NCBI GenBank assembly: GCA_021850805.1
Contig: JAJZKO010000001.1
Coordinates: forward strand, 45,885-109,884
DNA length: 64,000 nucleotides
Origin: Candidatus Micrarchaeota archaeon
GTDB lineage: Archaea > Micrarchaeota > Micrarchaeia > Micrarchaeales > CABMGC01
Direction: 5' to 3'
The notes under the pieces were generated by a model. That model was not told where the DNA came from. It was given only the letters and a program-made list of their open reading frames with translations, and did not search any database. How positions within the stretch are numbered: the first letter of the stretch is position 1; each line of letters begins with the position of its first letter. A program made the position numbers and the translations under genes. This document shows, piece by piece, positions 1 through 51,326 of this stretch.

Positions 1-648
1 AAGCAGCGAAGCGAAAACCCCATTCCTTGCAGCGTCGGCTGCCGTGCATCCTTTCCACATGCTTAGCTCGCCTGCCCTAGTCTGACGCATGCTTATGCTG
101 TTGTTTAAGGAAAGGCTTATCGCATTCACAAAGCCCTCTTTTTCAAGACCCATGAGCGAAGCAAGTCCAGCCGCAGATGATATTGATATGTAGGTCACAT
201 GATCCCAGCCCTTTGCACGTATTGAAAAAGAATCTGCAAAGGCGCATGCCACTTGATAGGATACGGCAATTGAGGCTATCGCATCCTTTTCAGAAAATCC
301 CATGGCGTCTGCGCAGCATAGTATTGGGGGTATGTTGTCTGAAGGATGCAGAGCTTCCTTGGACAGGTATGTATCGCTGTAATCAAGATATCTTGTCATT
401 GTTCCGTTTATGAATGTGGCAACATCTACTGATGCGGCCTCGCCGAAGAAGTATGTCCGCGAGTTGTATCTTCCTGAGCTTGGGAGTAGCGCTGCCCTTG
501 ATATGCTAACAGGCTTCTCCTTGGCCGCCCCGAACGATACAAATATTGAATCGATAATCCTCATCCTGATGAGCTCTTCGGTCTCCTTTTTCACCCCTGA
601 TTCGGAGACGTTTCTTGAATACTCATATAGCTTCTCTGCCAGGAACAT
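1..648 (-). CDS. MmgE/PrpD family protein (2-methylcitrate dehydratase-like), 3' end cut by window edge
   Basis: Not in the ORF track because it runs off the window. My reverse-strand translation from the ATG at 648 reads MFLAEKLYEYSRNVSESGVKKETEELIRMRIIDSIFVSFGAAKEK...RYLDYSDTYLSKEALHPSDNIPPIL... The HPSD motif and overall pattern are typical of PrpD/MmgE. It stays in frame to position 1. Confidence 0.75.
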   Translation of the reverse strand, partial: MFLAEKLYEYSRNVSESGVKKETEELIRMRIIDSIFVSFGAAKEKPVSISRAALLPSSGRYNSRTYFFGEAASVDVATFINGTMTRYLDYSDTYLSKEALHPSDNIPPILCCADAMGFSEKDAIASIAVSYQVACAFADSFSIRAKGWDHVTYISISSAAGLASLMGLEKEGFVNAISLSLNNSISMRQTRAGELSMWKGCTAADAARNGVFASLL

Positions 649-746
649 AACCAACCCTTACCTATGTACAATCTAAGGGATACAAAAGTATATATTTTAA
701 ATATGGTTGCATCTCTACTGCATGGTTTGCCAGAGGCATCTAGAAG

Positions 747-1514
747 ATGAGACATGATGATGAAGTGGTGTTTGGGAAGGAAGGTGGAATCGCAAGCATC
801 GCCATAAACAGGGCAGGAAGCATGAATGCGATCAGTTCTGATATCGCAGATGCGCTTGGGCGTTGTATCAAGGAAGTTGGAAAAGATCCAGTTATTAAGG
901 CAGTTGTAATCTCAGGCAGCGGAGGAAAAGCATTCTCTGCCGGGGCAGATATAAAATATATTTCCACTTTGAAGGGTGGAGCAGAGGCAAGAAAGTTTTC
1001 TGAAGAGATGCATGACCTGTTTGATAGGATAGAGTCCCTTGAGAAAGTAGTTATAGCGGCGATAGAAGGCTACTGCCTTGGCGGCGGATGCGAACTGGCA
1101 ATGGCGTGCGACATAAGGATAGCCGGGAATTCTGCGGTATTTGGGCAGCCGGAAGTTAAGCTTGGCTTGGTGCCCGGGGGCGGAGGGACTTACAGGCTCC
1201 AGCAGATTGTTGGAGTTGGAATGGCAAAGGAGCTGATATTCTCAGGGAGGAGCATAAGTGCAGAAGAAGCATTTAGGATAGGATTGGTTAACAGGGTGGT
1301 AAAAGCAGGCGCGGCGCTTGCAGAGGCGAAGATCCTTGCAGAGGAGATATGCCACAACAGCTCAAATGCGGTGCAGCTTTCGAAAAAGCTGATAAACACA
1401 GGGATTAGGAGCAATGGGGAGATGGAGAAGAGTTCGTTTGCTTCATGTTTCAATGGCGGTGATGCAAGAGAGGGCATAGATGCCTTCCTTAGCAAAAGGA
1501 GGCCTGATTTTTAA
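747..1514 (+). CDS. enoyl-CoA hydratase/isomerase (crotonase family)
   Basis: 255 aa. Crotonase signatures VISGSGGKAFSAGADI, GYCLGGGCELAMACDIRIA and GQPEVKLGLVPGGGGT. Confidence 0.9.
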   Translation: MRHDDEVVFGKEGGIASIAINRAGSMNAISSDIADALGRCIKEVGKDPVIKAVVISGSGGKAFSAGADIKYISTLKGGAEARKFSEEMHDLFDRIESLEKVVIAAIEGYCLGGGCELAMACDIRIAGNSAVFGQPEVKLGLVPGGGGTYRLQQIVGVGMAKELIFSGRSISAEEAFRIGLVNRVVKAGAALAEAKILAEEICHNSSNAVQLSKKLINTGIRSNGEMEKSSFASCFNGGDAREGIDAFLSKRRPDF

Positions 1515-1525
1515 GGGTAGGAACT

Positions 1526-2752
1526 ATGGAAGAGGTATTTATTGTTGATGCTGCAAGGAGCCCCATAGGCAAGTTCCTTGGGAAGCTTTCTGGAATAGGC
1601 GCCACTCACCTTGCTGCAGAAGTCCTGCAGGGGATGCTCAAGCGCACTCCGATAAATAAGGATGAGGTAGACGATCTTATACTCGGCAACGTCATCTCCT
1701 CAGGGCTCGGGCAGAACATAGCAAAGCAGGTAGTGGTATACGCTGGCCTCCCGAACAAGACTCCGGCTTATGCTGTGAACAAGGTATGTGCATCAAGCCT
1801 GAAGGCAGTCGCGCTGGGGAGCGAGGAGATATCCGCAGGCAATGCAGATGTTGTAATTGCAGGGGGCGCAGAGAGCATGAGCAACGCCCCTTTTGTCCTA
1901 AACGGAGTCAGGAAGTTCCACAAGTTCGGTAATCTGGAACTGGGAGATTTCCTGTCAAAAGCACATGAGGCAGGCGGCGATCCGGAGAGGATGACACTTG
2001 TTGATGAAATGCTCTATGAAGGACTTATAGACTGCTACAGTGGAAAGCACATGGGAAGCATAGCCGAGAGCATGGCTTCCGAATATGGAGTTACAAGAAA
2101 TGAAGAAGACGAATTTGCGCTTGAGAGCCACAGGAAAGCGGCTGCAGCAGAGGATTCTGGTAAGTTCTCACGCGAGATTATTCCAGTAGCTTCACCTGAT
2201 GGAAGCGTGGTAAGCGGAGATGAAGGGATACGCAGGGATACCAGCCTTGAGAGGCTATCGGCACTTAAACCGGTATTTGATAGCAAAGGTACGATAACAG
2301 CAGGCAACTCTTCGCAGCTTAGCGATGGGGCATCGTTCCTGATATTAGTCTCAGGTGGCAAGCTCAAGGAACTGGGATTGAAACCACTTGCACAGGTCAT
2401 TTCTTATTCTGCATCAGGCAGCGACCCTGATAAATATGGCATTGCGCCTGTTTCTTCTGCAAGAGATGCACTTGCAAAGGCAGGGTTAGGAACAGATGAC
2501 GTAGACCTGGTGGAACTTAACGAAGCCTTCTGCGTACAGGCACTTAGTGTAATAAAGTCCATTGGGATAGAGCGATCGAGGTTCAACGTAAACGGCGGGG
2601 CTACCGCCCTTGGGCATCCGCTTGGCGCTACTGGCGCGTGCATACTTTCTACACTTTTATATGCTTTGCATGATAGGAATAAGCAGATCGGTCTGGCAAC
2701 GCTCTGCCATGGGGGAGGCGGAGCAATGTCGGTAGTAGTAAGAAGAGGTTGA
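1526..2752 (+). CDS. acetyl-CoA C-acetyltransferase (thiolase)
   Basis: 408 aa. Active-site region NKVCASSLKA, C-terminal NVNGGATALGHPLGATG and LCHGGGGA. 11 nt downstream of the crotonase gene. Confidence 0.92.
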   Translation: MEEVFIVDAARSPIGKFLGKLSGIGATHLAAEVLQGMLKRTPINKDEVDDLILGNVISSGLGQNIAKQVVVYAGLPNKTPAYAVNKVCASSLKAVALGSEEISAGNADVVIAGGAESMSNAPFVLNGVRKFHKFGNLELGDFLSKAHEAGGDPERMTLVDEMLYEGLIDCYSGKHMGSIAESMASEYGVTRNEEDEFALESHRKAAAAEDSGKFSREIIPVASPDGSVVSGDEGIRRDTSLERLSALKPVFDSKGTITAGNSSQLSDGASFLILVSGGKLKELGLKPLAQVISYSASGSDPDKYGIAPVSSARDALAKAGLGTDDVDLVELNEAFCVQALSVIKSIGIERSRFNVNGGATALGHPLGATGACILSTLLYALHDRNKQIGLATLCHGGGGAMSVVVRRG

Positions 2753-2756
2753 ATAG

Positions 2757-3602
2757 ATGAACGTCGCAATAATAGGCGCAGGGACTATGGGCTCTGGAAT
2801 AGCGCAGGTAGTCCTTAAGGCAGGGCATGAACTTACGCTTGTAAGCGAGAGCGAGGAATCGGTATTCAGGGGTTCGGAGATGGTGCGTGCAGGCTTCGAG
2901 AAGGCCATTGCAAAGGGCAAGATGACGGCAGAAGAGCGGGATGGTGCTCTTAAGAGGATGAAAACAGCAGTAAGCATGGAGGGAGCCAAGGATGCGGAAC
3001 TCGTCATAGAAGCAGTGCCTGAGACATTAAAGACAAAGTCAGAGGTATTGGTGAATGCCGAGGGTTATCTTGGCGAGAATGCGCTTATAGCTACGAATAC
3101 GTCTTCCTTATCCATAAACAAACTTGCCTCTTACCTTGCTAAACCCGAAAGGTTTATAGGAATGCATTTCTTCAACCCGGCCCCGGTGATGAAGGTTGTG
3201 GAGGTTGTTACCGGAGACAAGACCTCGGAAGATACCAAGAAAAGAGCTAACGAATTCATCGACGGCCTCGGGAAGACTGCGGTAGACGTTAAGGACTCGC
3301 CGGGATTTATATCCAACCGGCTTCTCATGATTTACATAAATGAGGCGATAAACAGTTTTGCAGATGGTATTGCCACGAAGGAAGCGATAGATACTATAGC
3401 GAGGCTTGGCTTTAATCATCCTATGGGGCCTTTTGAGCTTGCCGATTTCATAGGCTTAGACGTATGCAAGGATATAATGGAGGCAATATATATGCAGAGC
3501 GGAGACAAGAGGTTTGAACCTTCCAGCCTTCTCGTAAGGCTTGTGAATGAGGGCAGGCGGGGCAGGAAAAACGGCCATGGATTTTACGACTACAAAGGGT
3601 AG
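2757..3602 (+). CDS. 3-hydroxyacyl/3-hydroxybutyryl-CoA dehydrogenase
   Basis: 281 aa. N-terminal Rossmann motif IIGAGTMGSGIAQV, then IATNTSSLSI, GMHFFNPAPVMKVVE and PGFISNRL. Third gene of the beta-oxidation-type operon. Confidence 0.92.
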   Translation: MNVAIIGAGTMGSGIAQVVLKAGHELTLVSESEESVFRGSEMVRAGFEKAIAKGKMTAEERDGALKRMKTAVSMEGAKDAELVIEAVPETLKTKSEVLVNAEGYLGENALIATNTSSLSINKLASYLAKPERFIGMHFFNPAPVMKVVEVVTGDKTSEDTKKRANEFIDGLGKTAVDVKDSPGFISNRLLMIYINEAINSFADGIATKEAIDTIARLGFNHPMGPFELADFIGLDVCKDIMEAIYMQSGDKRFEPSSLLVRLVNEGRRGRKNGHGFYDYKG

Positions 3603-3606
3603 ATGC

Positions 3607-4839
3607 TTAGTATTCTTGATCAGGAACTATGCGTATCTTCTTCCCGTAAAGGTCCATGAATGATTCCTCCACCTTGGCTTTGGAGGCTGTGGTTTCTTTC
3701 TCTACAGCTCTGAGTTTGTCTTCCATCTGTTCCTTTGATTCCTTTGACTTCTCGATGCTTCGCAGGCCTGCCTCGAGCTCTTCCTTAGTCTTCTCAAGAC
3801 TGTAAAGCTCCTGCTGCAGAGACCTTATGATATTCCTCCTGGAGGATATCTCATCCATCCTTTCAGCCATTCCGAAATCAATGACTCTGTCTATCGTATT
3901 TATTATATCTTCGGGATTCTTTATGTCTATCTTTGACTCAGAGATTGAACTTCTCATATCCTTCACAAGCCTTATGAAATTCTCTCTTGTGCCTTTCTCA
4001 CTTATGAGCCTCTCTGGATTGTCTATTATGGAGCTGAGCTTCTCCTTTTCCGCAGAGATATGGTCGTACTTCTTTGCTGACCTCTTGATCTGCGCAAGTG
4101 CTGCCTCTACCTCATTGTAGATACTAGATACGCGGGATGATTCCTCAGCGATCCTCTTCCTTAAGGAGTATACTTTTTCATGGAGTTTGGTGCCTTCTGC
4201 TCTGCCTGCACTGTTGTCGTGGCTTTCAGCAGCCATATCGCCAAGGGAAGATATGGATGCGCGGAGTTCTGAAGAAGTTGCATATAGTGACTCGAGTTCT
4301 GCTATGCTTGAATAAAGCCTCTGGAACCTTGAGTATTGCGGCTCATGGCGCTCTATTGCAAGGCCTGCCCTCTTTGAGACTTCTTCAAGAATGGAGTATG
4401 CCTTCTTGAAATCGCCAATGTTGTTGGAATAGCTATATATCACCTGCCTGAAGCTTCCGTTCGACTGCAGGATCTTCGAAAGTATCTTGTCTACCTTACC
4501 GCGCATATCCATCAGGCGCGCGTATGATGACTCTCCACTGTACTCGCATCCTGAGAGCGCAGAGATTATGCCAAGCATTGTCTTTGAGTATGCACTTTTC
4601 TGCGCCTTTATCGAGTTGATGTTGGGCATGTACATGTTCTCGGTGTTTGGCTCTATCGCAAGTGCCTCGAATTCGCTGCAGGCGCGTTCGAATATCGATA
4701 TTGATGTTGCGATTTCCGCTTTCGCGCGCTGCTCTGTGCGCGTTATCTCAGGCATACTCTGATCGAATGCATCTATGGAAAGCCTGCGGAGTTCGCCAAG
4801 ACGAACTTCTTCTTGAGATTTTGGTTTCCTGAAAAACAT
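3607..4839 (-). CDS. hypothetical coiled-coil protein
   Basis: 410 aa, E/K/S/R-rich with a heptad-like composition. No family recognised. It is the longest ORF in the region and fits between flanking genes. Confidence 0.55.
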   Translation of the reverse strand: MFFRKPKSQEEVRLGELRRLSIDAFDQSMPEITRTEQRAKAEIATSISIFERACSEFEALAIEPNTENMYMPNINSIKAQKSAYSKTMLGIISALSGCEYSGESSYARLMDMRGKVDKILSKILQSNGSFRQVIYSYSNNIGDFKKAYSILEEVSKRAGLAIERHEPQYSRFQRLYSSIAELESLYATSSELRASISSLGDMAAESHDNSAGRAEGTKLHEKVYSLRKRIAEESSRVSSIYNEVEAALAQIKRSAKKYDHISAEKEKLSSIIDNPERLISEKGTRENFIRLVKDMRSSISESKIDIKNPEDIINTIDRVIDFGMAERMDEISSRRNIIRSLQQELYSLEKTKEELEAGLRSIEKSKESKEQMEDKLRAVEKETTASKAKVEESFMDLYGKKIRIVPDQEY

Positions 4840-4981
4840 AAGGCATATCTCTACAGAAAAACGTATAATTTTACGCTTATGCTTATGGGTTACCGGCTCT
4901 CCTGCTGTTTCTGCGGCATCTTATATTTATATATTTTTACTTTTAGAGAATATTGCCGCTTCTTAGTCTTAGCTGGTTCTA

Positions 4982-6136
4982 ATGGGATTTGAGATACCTA
5001 ACATATACAGAAGCAGGTATTCAAGGTTCTTGATACTTGTTCCATTAGCCCTGCTCTTTGCAAGTTTATACTTTGCACGGGGAATAACTCTGGACTCGAC
5101 GCTGAGCGGCGGAGAGAGTATACTTATACAGGCCAACACCACCCTAAGCCCGCAGCAGCTTTCCGGAATGATAGCGAGCGCGCTACATACACCTGCTCCG
5201 TCTATAACCAAGGGCACTGGAACACTGCAGATAACTATAGCGTCCAACTCAAGCATCTCGCAGGCTTATACGGACCTTGCCTCATTCTATACTTACAGGA
5301 ACTACTACGACAGCTACAACCTGAATTATACCACCATAAAGATAGGCTTGGGAGAAGACCCTTCCAACTCCACCCTTGCCAAAGAGCTAAATTACACGGA
5401 AAGGAACATGAGCGAGTATATGAGTCTCATGAACAAATCCCTGGTAAGCGAGCTCTCCCTTCTCTCACCTTTCGTAGGAAGCGAGAGGTTCATACCAAAT
5501 GATACCTCAAATATGACAGCAGTAGCGAGCAGTGCTTACACGGACGCGGGCCTTGTTTATGAGAACCGTACCATATCTGCACTGCATAAGATAGTGCCTT
5601 TCACTAGTTATACATATCAGGAGATAACCGCCTCAGAGAGCAGCCAGTTCCTGGGGCAGCTTGAGGAGATAATGATAGTTGCATTCGTCCTTATCTCTAT
5701 AGCAGTATTCTTTATAGTCAGGTCTTTTGGGCCTTCCTTTGCGGTAATATTCGGGGCTGCGAACGACATCATAGTAGCACTCGGAGCAATGAGCCTCTTC
5801 GGGATTCCCCTTGGAACCGCAAGCATAGGCGGCCTCCTGATGCTCCTTGGTTATTCAATAGATACTGATGTGCTTACGGCAATACGCATACTTAAGAGGC
5901 ATGAAGGAACGCCTGAAGACAGGGCTTATGCATCTATGAAGACAGGAATAACGATGACTACTGCAGCCATAGTCTCCTTCGCGATACTTTTCGCAGTATC
6001 GGTTATACTCTACGTGCCTTCATATTACGAGATATCAGGGGCTGTGCTCTTCGGGCTTATAGGAGATATATTCACTACGTGGCTTGGCAACGCCTCGATA
6101 ATACTCTTCTACGCGCGGAGGAGGAGTGGTGGTTAG
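4982..6136 (+). CDS. secF: protein-export membrane protein SecF
   Basis: 384 aa. C-terminal SecD/F membrane domain (FGPSFAVIFGAANDIIVALGAMSLFGIPLGTASIGGLLMLLGYSIDTDVL). Long sequon-rich extracytoplasmic loop. Abuts secD. Confidence 0.8.
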   Translation: MGFEIPNIYRSRYSRFLILVPLALLFASLYFARGITLDSTLSGGESILIQANTTLSPQQLSGMIASALHTPAPSITKGTGTLQITIASNSSISQAYTDLASFYTYRNYYDSYNLNYTTIKIGLGEDPSNSTLAKELNYTERNMSEYMSLMNKSLVSELSLLSPFVGSERFIPNDTSNMTAVASSAYTDAGLVYENRTISALHKIVPFTSYTYQEITASESSQFLGQLEEIMIVAFVLISIAVFFIVRSFGPSFAVIFGAANDIIVALGAMSLFGIPLGTASIGGLLMLLGYSIDTDVLTAIRILKRHEGTPEDRAYASMKTGITMTTAAIVSFAILFAVSVILYVPSYYEISGAVLFGLIGDIFTTWLGNASIILFYARRRSGG

Positions 6137-7828: not shown

Positions 7829-7994
7829 CATGCATCACAAGGTCTTGCTTTCACAGCGCAGTAAGGCACAGAGCGCCATGGAGTACCTGATGACCTATGG
7901 ATGGGCGATACTGATTATCGCAGTGGTTCTTGGCGCGCTCTTCGAGCTCGGCGTCTTCAGCGGAACTTTCTTCATGCCTCATGTGCAGCCTTAA
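7829..7994 (+). pseudogene. decayed class III signal peptide (pilin-like) gene remnant, paralog of the 36830..37723 gene
   Basis: 7878-7984 matches 36860-36966 with 6 mismatches in 107 nt, and encodes MEYLMTYGWAILIIAVVLGALFELGVFSGTFFMPHV. The upstream ATG at 7829 (MHHKVLLSQR..) is out of frame by one extra G near 7860. The body is missing, and the sequence jumps to gcagcctt(a/g)acgcattgtat, which equals the 3' end of the full-length gene at about 37712-37731. Confidence 0.6.
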
Positions 7995-36829: not shown

Positions 36830-37723
36830 ATGCAGGTGGGGATCCGTGCACAGTCGGCAATGGAGTACCTGATGACATACGGATGGGCGATACTGATTAT
36901 CGCGGTGGTTCTCGGCGCGCTCTTCGAGCTCGGCGTCTTCAGCGGAACATTCTTCATGCCCCATGTACCTCCAGGATCGTGCCATGTCTTCAGGCCTTAC
37001 GGGCCTGGGACCGTCGGCTCAATAAACCTGGAGGGAGAGTGCCAGGGCGCGCTGCCGCAGTATGTAGCTGAATTCAATGGGAAGAGCAGCAGCATCTCAA
37101 CGCCGTTAGTTTTTCCACCCGGATCTTCCGAAACAAATTTTACGCTAGCAGTATGGGTTTATACGACAGGGGTATGTAGTACGGGCAACTTTTATTGTGG
37201 GATAGTTGATGCGGATAATGGAGGCAATGGATGGGGACTTATGAGCGGTCAGACAACTTCAGATTTTTGGATCCTTAAGAGCTCTACGTCAGGAGTGCAG
37301 GATATGGAGTTTAGCATCTTGCACTCTTCTTGGACACAAGTTGTGGTTACGTATGAAGTAAAGAATGGGAATTACCTTGCCAGCGCATATGTTAATGGTG
37401 CTTTGGTTGATACAGCGACAAGATCGGCCGTATCTTTGCCTGAACCGTACCCGCTTCAGATAGGCATTGCAAGGGAATCCTCTGGCATGGTCTTCAATGG
37501 ATCAATTTCCAATGTGCAATTATACAACGCAACGCTCTCCTCAAATTCCGTATCTTCCTTGTATGGAGAGGGTATAGGCGGCGCGCCAATAAACCTGAAG
37601 AACCTTGTTGCGTGGTGGCCACTGAACGGGAACGCTAACGATTATTCTGGGAATAACAACGATGGGACTGCGGCAAATGTAGTATATACCACCAACTGGG
37701 AGAACGGGTATACGCAGCCTTGA
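36830..37723 (+). CDS. LamG/concanavalin-A-like lectin domain protein with class III signal peptide (pilin-like adhesin)
   Basis: 297 aa. MQVGIRAQSAMEYLMTYGWAILIIAVVLGALF leader. LamG-type body (NFTLAVWVY..., WTQVVVTYE..., YVNGALV..., FNGSISNVQLYN). Confidence 0.8.
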   Translation: MQVGIRAQSAMEYLMTYGWAILIIAVVLGALFELGVFSGTFFMPHVPPGSCHVFRPYGPGTVGSINLEGECQGALPQYVAEFNGKSSSISTPLVFPPGSSETNFTLAVWVYTTGVCSTGNFYCGIVDADNGGNGWGLMSGQTTSDFWILKSSTSGVQDMEFSILHSSWTQVVVTYEVKNGNYLASAYVNGALVDTATRSAVSLPEPYPLQIGIARESSGMVFNGSISNVQLYNATLSSNSVSSLYGEGIGGAPINLKNLVAWWPLNGNANDYSGNNNDGTAANVVYTTNWENGYTQP

Positions 37724-46802: not shown

Positions 46803-47462
46803 TTGGATGCGGTTTACGCAAAAGGCAGGAGAGGGTTCATCCCTGATGAGATATACAATAAGCAGGTTAGGCCCAATATGGTTATCTCATGCGGGGATGC
46901 GATAGTTATTACATACAACGGCATTTTGCTTGGAAAGAGGCTAAATCCGCCGATGCAAGGCGAGTACTGGTTCCCGGGAGGGAGGCTGCATAAGGGCGAG
47001 GGACTGGAGGAATCAATTATAAAAAATGTTAAAAGCGAGACAGGTTTGGCGGTTGAAGTTGTCAAAGGGATGTTTCCAGTAATTGGAGATACCATATTTG
47101 CAGTAGGCGAGGACAGGCATTCCCTAAATACGACCCTTATAGTAAGGCATGTTGGGGGTGTGCCAGATCTTAGAAAGGATATAGAAGCTCCGAGATTCAT
47201 AAACAGCATCGAGGCTGACCTTCACCCTTATGTAAAAGAGATCCTGAGAAGAAGCGGTGTCTTCCATCCGGATGTAAAAGAGGTTCTTTGGAGCGGCGGC
47301 AGCGAGGTGCTGCAGAACCACCAGATACCAGGGATAGTACGGTATGATGAGACTGATCCGAAAGTAGCTCTGATGCAGATTGCAAGGCTTAGGGAATCAT
47401 ACCCTGACGCTGCGCAGCATGAGCTTGATAGGTTAAAGATTGCTTCTGAACTGCGCGAATGA
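46803..47462 (+). CDS. NUDIX hydrolase
   Basis: 219 aa. Nudix box GGRLHKGEGLEESIIKNVKSETGL. TTG start in the track, and the true start may be an internal Met. Confidence 0.75.
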   Translation: MDAVYAKGRRGFIPDEIYNKQVRPNMVISCGDAIVITYNGILLGKRLNPPMQGEYWFPGGRLHKGEGLEESIIKNVKSETGLAVEVVKGMFPVIGDTIFAVGEDRHSLNTTLIVRHVGGVPDLRKDIEAPRFINSIEADLHPYVKEILRRSGVFHPDVKEVLWSGGSEVLQNHQIPGIVRYDETDPKVALMQIARLRESYPDAAQHELDRLKIASELRE

Positions 47463-47566
47463 TCCGCTCTGCAATTGGATATAGACTATGCATCCAAGTT
47501 CTCCTGTTTCCAATCAAGGTTTTGTGCTGCCTGTACTGGGTAGGTTTGCTTTACTGCGCCGTGCCG

Positions 47567-48790
47567 TTACGGAGAGAATATTGCCGGGCTTTCCTCATGT
47601 AATGTACCTTCCTGCTGTCCTCCTGCTTTCCTCGTGGCGGATCTGAGGGATGCGCTTATATCAAAGACATGCCGCACATACTCGCCCATAAATGCATCCG
47701 TGTCCACGCCAAGCTTATCCAGTTCCTGCATCAGCTCTGGATATTTGGATTTATACTCGCCGTTTACGAAAGCGATAAATTTCTCGTATGCACTTGGCTC
47801 TGATGTGCCTGTTCCATACTTACCAGGAACCTGCTCGTGGAGTTCGTGCAGCTCCATGAGCTTCTCGTGCAGCTCGTTGCTGTGGCTCCTTACCGCATTG
47901 CCAATGTTTATGGTGCTGACTTTTATCCTGCCACCAGTTGAGCTTGAGAGGTTATGGAAGAGCTGATTGGAATTTAGGAGCAGATCTTCTATAGCGGCAA
48001 GCTCCTCTTTAGGAAGCGCATTCTTAAACTTATCCGTAAATGTATGGACTACAGCGAATAGCAGCAGGTTGGATTCGTTTGCCTTGCTTATCGTATCTGA
48101 CATGCCAGGATCAGTAATCTTTATCCCTGCGTTTAGCTTGTTTTCAAGGTCTTTCACGCGCTTTGATACTTCTCCGTATAGCTCGTTGATTGTTTCGTGG
48201 TACTCTTTCTTAGCGGCTGAAAGCAGTGCGGCTCCGGCGGGTCCCGCTACTGATAATGTAGCCGGTTCATGTAAAACATCAGAAGTTACCCTAGGCATCT
48301 CAAGCGTAGGCTGATCAGTTGTCGCTGTGCCTGCAGGTGCCCTTGGCTGGGTTATCGATGCGGCATTGTCCCTCTGCTCGCTTATGTATGATCTGAGCAT
48401 CTCTTTTGCAGCCTCTATGCCCTCTCCCCGCGAGGACATCTTATTTGCGGCGCTATACGCATAGGCAAGGGTCTCGCGCGCCGCTATAAGATCAACAAGG
48501 GCGCCGCGCATACGTACAAAATCATTCTGAAGCAGCATTTCCTGTAGATGCTTTACCAGCCTTTCCTCGGTTTCCAGCTGTTTCTTGGTAGGCGCCCCTT
48601 TTGTAGATGCGTATGCGGCAGGGATATCTTCCCCTACCATCTTCTCAAGCTTCCTGAAACGCGCAAGCCTCTCTCTAAAGGCTTTGTTTTCGCCTATGTC
48701 CTTGAGGTCCTTGTCATTGATAAATCTTGACTCTGCTTTCAGCTCATTCTGGCTCTCAACCTTATTCTTCCCCACGCTGATAATTGCCAT
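47567..48790 (-). CDS. hypothetical acidic/helical protein with a 5' end (first 20 codons) inside an inverted repeat
   Basis: 407 aa, no family recognised. Codons 1-20 (MAIISVGKNKVESQNELKAE) lie in IR-L and are antisense to a copy of the C-terminal coding sequence of gene 49185..50285. The true start is uncertain; the next Met is about residue 51. Confidence 0.5.
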   Translation of the reverse strand: MAIISVGKNKVESQNELKAESRFINDKDLKDIGENKAFRERLARFRKLEKMVGEDIPAAYASTKGAPTKKQLETEERLVKHLQEMLLQNDFVRMRGALVDLIAARETLAYAYSAANKMSSRGEGIEAAKEMLRSYISEQRDNAASITQPRAPAGTATTDQPTLEMPRVTSDVLHEPATLSVAGPAGAALLSAAKKEYHETINELYGEVSKRVKDLENKLNAGIKITDPGMSDTISKANESNLLLFAVVHTFTDKFKNALPKEELAAIEDLLLNSNQLFHNLSSSTGGRIKVSTINIGNAVRSHSNELHEKLMELHELHEQVPGKYGTGTSEPSAYEKFIAFVNGEYKSKYPELMQELDKLGVDTDAFMGEYVRHVFDISASLRSATRKAGGQQEGTLHEESPAIFSP

Positions 48791-48962
48791 AACCTACTCG
48801 ACGATAGTCCAGATGGGCGAGATAATAGGTGGAATGGCAAGGACTTCAGGAAGGCTGAGGCTTGTAGTATAACCTAGATGCGACAAAACCCATAGAAGCT
48901 ATCTTTAAATATCAGAAAAAACAGAATAAATATTGCCTAAATTGGCTAAAGGTACCCTTATG
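48730..48962. repeat. inverted repeat, left arm (233 bp)
   Basis: I reverse-complemented this segment block by block. It is identical to 49095-49327 over all 233 nt. Confidence 0.97.
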
Positions 48963-49094
48963 AACTTCGCTTATATTATGCAACATCCGCTGCAACTCCA
49001 GCATGCGCTTCTCTGCCTGATTAAGTACAGAAGGTATGCTGTTTATTGCGTTGTTTTCTTTTCTTGCTACGCCAGTATGTGGTTTTGCGAATAC

Positions 49095-49327
49095 CATAAG
49101 GGTACCTTTAGCCAATTTAGGCAATATTTATTCTGTTTTTTCTGATATTTAAAGATAGCTTCTATGGGTTTTGTCGCATCTAGGTTATACTACAAGCCTC
49201 AGCCTTCCTGAAGTCCTTGCCATTCCACCTATTATCTCGCCCATCTGGACTATCGTCGAGTAGGTTATGGCAATTATCAGCGTGGGGAAGAATAAGGTTG
49301 AGAGCCAGAATGAGCTGAAAGCAGAGT
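49095..49327. repeat. inverted repeat, right arm (233 bp)
   Basis: Perfect reverse complement of 48730-48962. Contains the last 47 codons plus stop of gene 49185..50285 and 90 nt of its 3' flank. Confidence 0.97.
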
Positions 49328-50285
49328 TGGCCTCCTGGACGTCAAGCACGAGCGGAGAACTTGGGGAGATGGCGTTCTGCTGCGCGCCGTTGCCTGCGCT
49401 GTATTTGTTCACCGATGTGGTTATTGTGCTTAGTTGGCTTGTCAGAGAGGCCGAGGTGAAGTAGTATGCTATTGAAAAAAGGACAGGCATTATGAAATAG
49501 AAACCTATCGCAGCTGCCATCATCATTCCTCCGAAAGAGCGTGTTGGGAGGAGTGCCCTGAAGGCAATCCCTGGGATAAGGAAGACTGGTATTGCCGCAT
49601 ACATGAAGAATAAAATTATGTAGTATTGCACGTACAAGGATATCAGGGCATCTATCATTAGCCCTACCACAGTTGTCACAGGCCAGTAGAAGTTGACCAT
49701 TATCGGCACGGTGAGTATCTTTCCTATGTTGGTATAGCACTGCGGTTCAAGCGGGTCTAGTTCATTCGGAACGCAGACGGTAAGCCTGAAGCTCGCGTAG
49801 AATGCGTCTACTACAGCATCATTCAGCATAGGCACAACCAGATTCTGGGTGGCGTTTATTGTGGTGGATATGTAAGATAGGGATGCGTTATACGGGTCTA
49901 TTGGGCCTGTTATTGTTGCGGTAAATGCGCCGAAGAGGGTGGCTGCTATGAGAAGGAAGAATACTGCAATTATAGCAGTCGCTGTTGCCTCGTACATCTC
50001 ACCTATGGCGAATGTCCGCAGCCTCTCGTTCTTGAATATCATGGCTGTCATGAAAACTGCGGCAGCTATTGCAAAAGAGAGCATCATTACTACCAATACC
50101 ACTGGCGACCATTTGTTCCATGAGTTTATCACCTGCTGGTTTATGCTGCTGCAGTACCATGGAGCAGTTACCTTGACAAATCCGCTTGATGCGCAGTAGT
50201 TGAAGAGCGAAGCTGCATTTGAGGCTGATGCAGAGAGGAATATTCCGAATATTATGATCATTCCTAGTTTATTCATGGCAATCAT
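49185..50285 (-). CDS. polytopic membrane protein, paralog family member 6 of 6
   Basis: 366 aa. Signal-like N-terminus, ERLRTFAIGEMYEATATAII segment, and motif FRALLPTRSFGGMMMAAAIGFYFIMP. Confidence 0.7.
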   Translation of the reverse strand: MIAMNKLGMIIIFGIFLSASASNAASLFNYCASSGFVKVTAPWYCSSINQQVINSWNKWSPVVLVVMMLSFAIAAAVFMTAMIFKNERLRTFAIGEMYEATATAIIAVFFLLIAATLFGAFTATITGPIDPYNASLSYISTTINATQNLVVPMLNDAVVDAFYASFRLTVCVPNELDPLEPQCYTNIGKILTVPIMVNFYWPVTTVVGLMIDALISLYVQYYIILFFMYAAIPVFLIPGIAFRALLPTRSFGGMMMAAAIGFYFIMPVLFSIAYYFTSASLTSQLSTITTSVNKYSAGNGAQQNAISPSSPLVLDVQEANSAFSSFWLSTLFFPTLIIAITYSTIVQMGEIIGGMARTSGRLRLVV

Positions 50286-51326
50286 TCATATTATGCTTGT
50301 AAGTATTGACATAAAATCCATCCTCTCCCCTATCGCCTTTGAGAAGTCTATTATGAACGTGTCAACTATTATGAAGTTCATCAGCGGAATCAGTGTCAGA
50401 CCCATTATTATGAATCCGACATAGAGCAGTATGACATTTATAAATGCATATATTGGTGCAACGCCTACCACTAGTGTAAAGAGGAATGTGAGCAGCGTGC
50501 TCCAGCTTAGGAGAAGCGCGCCTATGTTGATGTTGCTCAGGGCAAATGTTATGAACCCGTACGAGACCGTGACTAATAGAGGGTAGACAATGCCTATGCC
50601 CAAACCGAACGCTATCATTGCACCGCCGAATGTCCTGCTTATCCCGAAAGCCCTGCCTATGAGGCCCACGGTCATGAAGATTGAGAATAATATAGGGGAT
50701 GCGGCAATCAGGAGAAGCTGCATCTGCTCCGCAAGGAAGAGTATGAAAGCAAGCTGCATGTAAGGAGAAATATAGTGGAATACAGGATATACCGATTCTA
50801 TCGGATTGAAACTGAAAGATATGCTGGAGAAGACGAATGGTATTGATACGTGTATCCCTGGGGAGAATGCAATTAGCAGTGCGAGGTAGTATATTACCTG
50901 GGCAAAGTTGGCAAAGTCTGAATTAAATTGGAATACGTTGCACAGCGCCAGACCGTAAAATGTATTTATCGATGCACCATATGGCGTGTTCGTAGCAGGC
51001 TGGCATGCAGGAGGGAGAAGGCCCACGCTTTTGTAGATTGCTGCAGGCTGCGCGGAGCATATGAATCCTGACACGAATACGAATACGAACACCAGTATTA
51101 TGGTGAAGAGGGAATCGTAGATCTTTGACCTAACCCATACCCTTATGTCGCTCCTTCCGGCAAGAGGCGCCAGCATGAATATTAGGATAAGGACTGTTAT
51201 CACTGCAAGAGATGCTATGATTATTATTGGGAACCAGAACAGGTAAGGGGTCGAGAAGAAACTAGTAGCATTGGCAAGGCAGCTTCCGAGGAGGACATAT
51301 ACGTATGCGAATTGGCCAAGCATCAT
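50286..51326 (-). CDS. polytopic membrane protein, paralog family member 5 of 6
   Basis: 346 aa. Motif GRAFGISRTFGGAMIAFGLGIGIVYP. Abuts the next gene with a 0-nt gap. Confidence 0.7.
   Translation of the reverse strand: MMLGQFAYVYVLLGSCLANATSFFSTPYLFWFPIIIIASLAVITVLILIFMLAPLAGRSDIRVWVRSKIYDSLFTIILVFVFVFVSGFICSAQPAAIYKSVGLLPPACQPATNTPYGASINTFYGLALCNVFQFNSDFANFAQVIYYLALLIAFSPGIHVSIPFVFSSISFSFNPIESVYPVFHYISPYMQLAFILFLAEQMQLLLIAASPILFSIFMTVGLIGRAFGISRTFGGAMIAFGLGIGIVYPLLVTVSYGFITFALSNINIGALLLSWSTLLTFLFTLVVGVAPIYAFINVILLYVGFIIMGLTLIPLMNFIIVDTFIIDFSKAIGERMDFMSILTSII

Follow-up and report, generated by a model that had tools for sequence, protein, structure and literature searches.

A perfect inverted repeat that disrupts a conserved gene of a Micrarchaeota-type archaeon, probably formed by a single switch-and-return template switch

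Local template switches that leave inverted sequence behind have been described in several forms. In the four-point model of Loytynoja and Goldman (2017, PMC5453318), the derived sequence consists of a fragment F1, the reverse complement of a nearby fragment and a fragment F3; only a few identical bases are needed at the switch points, and events of type 3-2-1-4 make novel inverted repeats, perfect and with a non-inverted spacer, without a pre-existing repeat. Fold-back priming at an inverted microhomology beside a break, with subsequent capture at the other end, has also been documented (PMC11724301). In these events, inverted microhomology at the 3' end forms a looped hairpin and the same strand is copied backwards; once unwound and joined to the other end, the product leaves an inverted repeat of greater length. 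The yeast example had a 10-nt imperfect match and a 41-nt loop, and the insertions ranged from 2 to ~150 bp (mostly <14 bp), with capture by NHEJ at 0-5 bp of microhomology. Large fold-back inverted duplications (PMC3907307) can be grouped with these snap-back events, sharing the same hairpin-primed copying. The quasipalindrome model of Ripley (PMC7202029, PMC5453318) likewise turns a sequence into a perfect inverted repeat but needs a near-perfect inverted repeat to start from. In MMBIR/FoSTeS (PMC2621351), microhomology-primed switches of 3' ends to single-stranded templates close by yield inverted segments and deletions, usually on a kilobase to megabase scale and often with several switches. 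For archaea, alternative end joining or microhomology-mediated repair has been described in two genera only, Haloferax and Sulfolobus (PMC8708640).

Here, we describe a locus in a 64-kb stretch of DNA (the window, by which we mean the whole stretch analysed) in which an inverted copy of neighboring sequence lies inside a conserved gene for a 509-aa protein. We hold with considerable confidence that this arrangement is a single, very recent and private mutation that arose in the chromosome of a Micrarchaeota-type archaeon by a short-range template switch of the switch-and-return kind. The mutational class is already known; what is new is this instance, and no new kind of system is involved. Compared with the four-point template switches (PMC5453318), the anchors at the switch points are longer (8 and 11 nt), the event lies in a coding region of a DPANN-type archaeon, and the exact ancestral haplotype is at hand. 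The locus also has the pattern of a fold-back insertion, with 8 nt of inverted match around a loop of 132 nt, 11 nt of microhomology for the capture and a loss of 213 nt. Relative to the yeast events (PMC11724301), the match is shorter and the loop longer, and 214 nt were captured through the 11-nt microhomology together with a 213-nt deletion. Set against MMBIR/FoSTeS (PMC2621351), there is one 0.2-kb switch and return.

The inverted repeat and its intact relatives

The window is archaeal chromosome, with genes for topoisomerase VI-B, Nuo/Mrp subunits, thiolase and SecD/F and a GC content of ~47%, and the host chromosome is of the Micrarchaeota type (DPANN). The repeat sits in a minus-strand cluster of mostly orphan genes. 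Within this cluster, the best matches of a HerA/FtsK-superfamily ATPase are CedD, CedB and VirB4/TraC, all below threshold; there is a second HerA-like ATPase and a weak TrbC/VirB2 hint. The parts of the repeat and its surroundings are as follows.

49185..50285, minus strand: 366-aa membrane-protein gene, intact, ending ...RLRLVV, the last of six paralogues (21-25% identity)
49095..49327, minus strand: right arm, the original (template) copy, collinear with and 100% identical to the intact loci L001 and L010
49185-49327, minus strand: part of the right arm, last 143 nt of the 366-aa gene including its stop
Between the 366-aa and 509-aa genes, minus strand: part of the right arm, 87-nt intergenic region with the conserved putative promoter
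49097-49095, minus strand: part of the right arm, native ATG of the 509-aa gene
48963..49094, minus strand: spacer of 132 nt, holding codons 2-45 of the 509-aa gene as native sequence, not inverted
48730..48962, plus strand: left arm, inverted duplicate of 49095-49327 (233/233 identical)
48741..48954, minus strand: net foreign tract, 214 nt in place of 213 native nt (codons 49-119)
48955..48962, minus strand: inner junction microhomology CATAAGGG, 8 nt (13/16 with flanks), from the junction alignment
49095-49102: inverted partner of the inner microhomology, CCCTTATG
48730..48740, minus strand: outer junction microhomology GAAAGCAGAGT, 11 nt (17/21 with flanks), from the junction alignment
49317-49327: inverted partner of the outer microhomology

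The repeat was detected as 48730-48970 / 49087-49327, with arms of 241 nt that are 99% complementary and 116 nt between them; the 3 mismatches all lie within the innermost 8 nt. Comparison with intact relatives refined the edges to a duplicated tract of 233 nt, 100% identical, at 48730-48962 / 49095-49327. The inverted repeat of the preliminary description is thus real, with its edges corrected to 233 perfect nt and a 132-nt spacer, and the layout of open reading frames given there holds (407 aa at 47567..48790(-), 366 aa at 49185..50285(-) and a mirror frame at 49267..49464(+)). Its view of the right arm as the original and the left arm as the inverted duplicate is also borne out. The right arm is collinear with every intact relative (the C-termini of the 366-aa paralogues align weakly, at 21-25% identity). 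By blastn, the left arm matches L001 10003->9771 and L010 5191->4959, on the opposite strand and at 100%; in the window it lies inside the 509-aa gene, and at this position it is absent in 29/29 related loci. The spacer encodes VFAKPHTGVARKENNAINSIPSVLNQAEKRMLELQRMLHNISEV, in agreement with the N-termini of orthologues, and an identical spacer haplotype occurs in 8 intact loci.

The ancestral state can be read directly from these relatives. L001, a 27-kb metagenome contig with the same synteny and an intact 509-aa gene, aligns to the window in three blocks.

Block 1: window 50400->48955 (minus strand), L001 8698-10143, collinear
Block 2: window 48962->48730, L001 10003->9771, inverted, 233/233
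Block 3: window 48740->47400, L001 10357-11697, collinear, 100%

A closer relative, L010, maps in the same three-block pattern, without a mismatch over the 5331 nt upstream and with 2 over the 3557 nt downstream, and by this alignment it is the exact ancestral haplotype, including the same spacer alleles. Joining L010[1..5331], the reverse complement of L010[4959..5183] and L010[5556..] in silico reproduces the window over 9102 nt, bar 2 SNPs; both SNPs lie outside the 509-aa gene, and the in-silico product yields the same 61-aa stub that is found in the window. The five differences between the window and L001 are all clustered in the spacer. We considered whether they might be scars of repair and rejected this, as 4 of the 5 are shared with other lineages and the 8 intact loci carry the same spacer; on these comparisons, they are standing variation or a recombination mosaic. 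A 23-nt target-site duplication at an insertion in L006 was likewise dismissed as BLAST over-extension, the flanks not being identical.

The rearranged allele is rare. Its junction strings (J1 GAAGTTCATAAGGGTACCTTTAGCC and J2 GAGCTGAAAGCAGAGTCAAGATT, also given as GTTCATAAGGGTACC and GAGCTGAAAGCAGAGTCAAG) replace the native strings GTTCATAAGGGAAGC and GCAAGGAAAGCAGAGTCAAG of the intact allele, and they are absent from the 29 fetched loci, from the GTDB species-representative genomes and from the JGI metagenome contigs. About 20 independent contigs encode identical flanking proteins, and the 509-aa gene is intact in all those listed; at least 24 public contigs encode a protein identical to the 366-aa product. 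Clustering at 90% protein identity groups ten variants with a length of 509-510 aa, spread over 19 contigs, with a sole 407-aa member, P0015 (NCBI only, on a contig of 130,006 nt); this one is identical to the window frame and therefore the window's own record.

As the allele is known from this single record, a library or assembly artifact has to be weighed, in which chimeric molecules were taken as the consensus and the organism carries an intact 509-aa gene. Chimeras produced by MDA (phi29) are typically inverted and joined at short microhomologies, a form that the present allele resembles, and its absence from ~20 near-identical contigs and two collections points in the same direction. However, two switches 214 nt apart that restore both collinearity and strand would be unusual for a random chimera. 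Any assembly k-mer is longer than the 8- and 11-nt microhomologies; the junctions can therefore not be an invention of the assembler, and both must be present in reads. Moreover, a repeat search of the full 64-kb window found no second inverted repeat of 40 nt or longer, and inverted chimeras are therefore not rife in the assembly; the contig also runs on, by 47 kb in one direction and by 15 kb in the other. We regard an artifact as unlikely.

The 509-aa gene and what remains of it

Homologues of the 407-aa frame are 502-511 aa long and align with it from its residue ~18 onward; they carry ~120 extra N-terminal residues, MVFAKPHTGVARKENNAIN...EVHKGS.... The outcome that the preliminary description had named as refuting its view, a conserved and different N-terminus in the orthologues, is thus what the comparison gave. 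All orthologues begin MVFAKPHTGV...EVHKGS..., and MAIISVGK is found in none of them, only in the window. Across five orthologues (69-91% identity), 81 of the first 125 residues are invariant, as are 40 of the 71 residues deleted in the window; judged from this alignment, the conserved N-terminus of the family is under constraint. The 509-aa family forms a single 50%-identity cluster among 1.8 billion representatives in a deep homology search, and the one relative of the 407-aa frame in a named genome is in a Candidatus Micrarchaeota MAG (66% identity). One further candidate match, P0006, is the translation of a tandem repeat and was discarded as a false positive. Pfam and NCBIfam scans gave no match for the 509-aa protein or the membrane paralogues. 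AlphaFold2 returned an all-helical model with pLDDT 44 for the intact 509-aa protein (5 sequences) and pLDDT 50.6 for the 366-aa paralogue, both too poor for a fold search.

In the window, the native ATG (49097, minus strand) and codons 1-48 are retained in the right-arm edge and the spacer, and the native promoter is retained as well. A small frame at 48912..49124(-) reads ...MVFAKPHTGVARKENNAINSIPSVLNQAEKRMLELQRMLHNISEVHKG, then TFSQFRQYLFCFF, then stop; the native N-terminus is encoded in this spacer frame, and therefore the real start at ATG 49097 still exists. The block that was lost is internal, codons 49-119 (71 codons), overwritten by 214 inverted nt, and because 214 nt took the place of 213, the frame is shifted by +1. 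Two products of the gene can be delimited.

48912..49097, minus strand: native-start product cut to 61 aa, 48 native residues, then TFSQFRQYLFCFF, then a stop
47567..48790, minus strand: 407-aa remnant frame, start MAIISVGKNKVESQNELKAE, 17 foreign residues MAIISVGKNKVESQNEL, then native residues 120-509

The preliminary description had derived the 5' end of the 407-aa frame from the left arm. This is correct for its ATG and the ~172 nt upstream, while the foreign residues number 17, not 20: K18-A19-E20 come from the 11-nt junction microhomology and equal native K120-A121-E122. Its suggestion that the native 5' end had been replaced is right in that the rearrangement altered the 5' part of the gene, but the promoter, ATG and codons 1-48 are still there. 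The alternative of a start near Met51 finds no support either, as the conserved protein starts ~120 residues further upstream. An intact orthologue has about 505 aa with the conserved ~120 N-terminal residues, whereas the window lacks residues 49-119 and has a broken frame. With an internal block lost and the frame shifted, the 407-aa frame is an out-of-frame remnant, rather than a gene that has evolved a start of its own, and the 509-aa gene of the window is most probably a loss-of-function allele.

With the TATA-like box and native ATG kept in the right arm, transcription would yield the 61-aa stub followed by the 407-aa remnant, which begins 119 nt downstream. The remnant could be translated as a second cistron, judging by an AGGT at -6 from its ATG at 48790. 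These features also permit a reading as gene fission, an updated form of the first option in the preliminary description, in which the allele is expressed and functional, giving a peptide of 61 aa and, from the adventitious ATG 48790, a protein of 407 aa with a de novo N-terminus. The peptide would keep the N-terminal motif that is most conserved, a transcript from the intact native promoter would hold both frames, and the remnant carries no further lesions, both differences from L010 being outside the gene. However, no further decay is expected of so recent an event, and, as the allele is private, selection cannot be demonstrated. The fission would also have cost 71 conserved codons, 40 of them invariant, and SD-like motifs in this genome mostly lie at -7 to -14 rather than -6. 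In addition, a perfect hairpin of ~233 bp was computed for transcripts spanning both arms (-497 kcal/mol); read-through transcripts from the upstream operon would be predicted to fold into it, burying the ATG of the remnant. We consider a functional fission distinctly improbable, and a disrupted gene remains our preferred reading.

The duplicated putative promoter

A sigma-70/terminator scan was set aside because the host is an archaeon. Upstream of the 509-aa gene, a TATA-like box was read by eye from the locus alignment; it is invariant in 9/9 aligned loci, down to an orthologue with 67% protein identity, and this conservation suggests that TTTAAATA acts as the promoter box of the gene. The left arm mirrors this conserved box together with the SD-like motif and the ATG.

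49146..49153, minus strand: conserved TATA-like box TTTAAATA of the 509-aa gene, -56..-49 from the ATG
48904..48911, plus strand: mirror copy of the TATA box, pointing right to the spacer and the 366-aa gene
48960, plus strand: mirror ATG of a 61-aa frame ending at 49145 (within the frame 48933..49145)
49267..49464, plus strand: mirror frame, 65 aa, antisense to the 366-aa gene, with the same start MAIISVGKNKVESQNELKAE as the 407-aa frame

As the mirrored TATA box points rightwards, the two putative promoters, which are identical and ~240 nt apart, converge. A plus-strand transcript from the mirror promoter would be antisense to the 3' end of the 366-aa gene. For the antisense idea of the preliminary description, the mirrored promoter parts are a firmer basis than the one given there, as far as sequence can tell.

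Such an arrangement invites the view that the repeat is maintained for a function, either as an invertible switch or as a convergent-promoter antisense regulator of the membrane-protein operon. It could be argued that a TATA box and ATG duplicated in opposite orientation suit a regulator, and that homologous recombination between perfect arms of 233 nt might, in principle, invert the spacer. Against this, the repeat is absent from all relatives examined (29 related loci), the spacer is in its native orientation, and a conserved reading frame was destroyed. Nor was a recombinase domain found in the neighboring genes scanned, or an Rfam match at 47000-51000. Without the repeat in relatives or a recombinase among those neighbors, the locus does not have the makeup of a programmed invertible element, and a maintained function seems to us very improbable indeed. 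A transposable element or MITE was also considered and rejected: the arm is local sequence without other copies in the window, and therefore not a mobile element, and the junctions carry microhomology only, with no target-site duplication.

The copying route and its meaning

The switch-and-return template switch that we favor can be described by four switch points in L010: point 3 at 4959, point 2 at 5191, point 1 at 5331 and point 4 at 5545. The derived sequence equals F1 + revcomp F2 + F3 of this ancestor. The order of points is 3-2-1-4 on the gene strand, which is type 1-4-3-2 on the other strand; an inverted repeat was created and the spacer stayed collinear with the ancestor. All four points lie within 600 nt, a distance compatible with one fork.

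We propose that a growing 3' end, having copied the 509-aa gene as far as ...CATAAGGG (codon 48), would have paired with the inverted CCCTTATG 132 nt upstream, at the start codon of the same gene. Copying would then have run in reverse, first across the promoter region between the genes and next across the final 143 nt of the 366-aa gene, until the new strand returned to its original template via the 11-nt match GAAAGCAGAGT at codons 119-123. Such a path would leave 214 inverted nt for 213 native nt, a perfect 233-nt inverted repeat, a deletion of 71 codons and a +1 frame, and would turn the 509-aa gene into a 61-aa N-terminal stub and an out-of-frame 407-aa remnant. The inner anchor, CCCTTATG...CATAAGGG, is confined to the sublineage of the window and L001. 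As for the outer anchor of 11 nt, the fold-back product meets no match of 9 nt or more before it, and it is the joint longest match within a search space of 1 kb x 1 kb. Correction of an ancestral quasi-palindrome, as in the Ripley model, was rejected: the replaced and inserted tracts are 20-26% identical ungapped, 202 of 300 shuffles reach the same score or a better one, and the ancestral tracts are thus at chance similarity rather than near-perfect repeats.

The enzymatic route may have been a template switch at a replication fork, or fold-back priming at a double-strand break with microhomology-mediated capture; the footprint fits a broken end and a stalled fork alike. The strand returned just 1 nt away from the position that mirror symmetry would give, while for the remaining available matches the offset ranges from -504 to +526 nt. 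Neither route predicts so symmetric a return, and part of the mechanism may therefore be missing. As the copied 214 nt nearly equal the skipped 213 nt and the return is 1 nt off the mirror position, one might envisage an error of the archaeal replisome, and not break repair, with a length-conserving switch, a split gene and convergent promoters. If so, the polymerase was on the wrong strand and copied it at a rate coupled to the advance of the fork; the outcome would be a peptide of 61 aa and a protein of 407 aa, the latter with 17 de novo residues at its N-terminus, and the convergent promoters could yield antisense RNA against the membrane-protein operon. Taken as a whole, we think this combination unlikely.

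For annotation, the 407-aa "gene" is to be treated as the 509-aa gene in a disrupted allelic form; a single mutation brought about its apparent start, the mirror frames and the antisense pair as by-products. For mutation biology, the locus offers a clean natural example of a large (0.2-kb) switch-and-return event in a DPANN-type archaeon, with both junctions and the exact ancestral haplotype recoverable from public data. It indicates that a long perfect inverted repeat, together with new starts of open reading frames, can arise in one step without a pre-existing repeat.

Substitutions and tract lengths at the inverted repeat

Over approximately 3 kb, the window and L001, a metagenome contig with the intact 509-aa gene, differ at only five positions. 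All five lie inside 37 nt of the spacer between the repeat arms (window 49003-49039; L001 10059-10095), and in this patch L001 carries the alleles of the more distant locus L007. This pattern suggests that a short tract was exchanged between lineages by recombination (gene conversion).

The inserted tract in the window (214 nt; 48741-48954) and the deleted tract, as defined in the closest intact relative (213 nt; L010 5332-5544), are nearly equal in length, and the mirror position lies 1 nt from the return microhomology. This match is either a coincidence, at roughly 3 in 1000 as judged post hoc, or the product of a length-conserving mechanism.

Variation around the 509-aa gene and a distant repeat

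In one relative, the same 87 nt that separate the 366-aa gene from the 509-aa gene are interrupted by an AT-rich insertion of ~364 nt (L006 1162-1525). There was no copy of the insertion in the window or the other loci, and a clean target-site duplication was not found at the insertion. Downstream of the 509-aa gene, L015 and the 81%-identity lineage (L002-L006) have a single gene of 507-517 aa on the opposite strand in place of the NUDIX and 482-aa genes, and this segment of the cluster is therefore variable. Elsewhere in the window, a direct repeat has copies 29 kb apart:

7866-7984: copy of the 119-nt direct repeat (92% identity)
36848-36966: second copy, which overlaps the gene for a Laminin_G_3 (concanavalin-like) protein (36830-37723) at its start

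The minus-strand gene cluster

37822-62958, minus strand: syntenic, lineage-restricted gene cluster, also in L001 and the related loci L002 and L009

Six of the proteins encoded here are polytopic membrane paralogues of 346-519 aa, with 21-25% identity and a common motif, R..P.TR..GG; the cluster also has orphans of 636, 242 and 789 aa. One ATPase is CedD/CedB/VirB4-like, by matches below threshold, and a second is HerA-like; there is also a weak hint of a TrbC/VirB2 pilin. Most members had no match in Pfam or NCBIfam, and the AF2 models were of poor quality. The cluster may encode a Ced/T4SS-like apparatus for DNA transfer or cell contact in Micrarchaeota.
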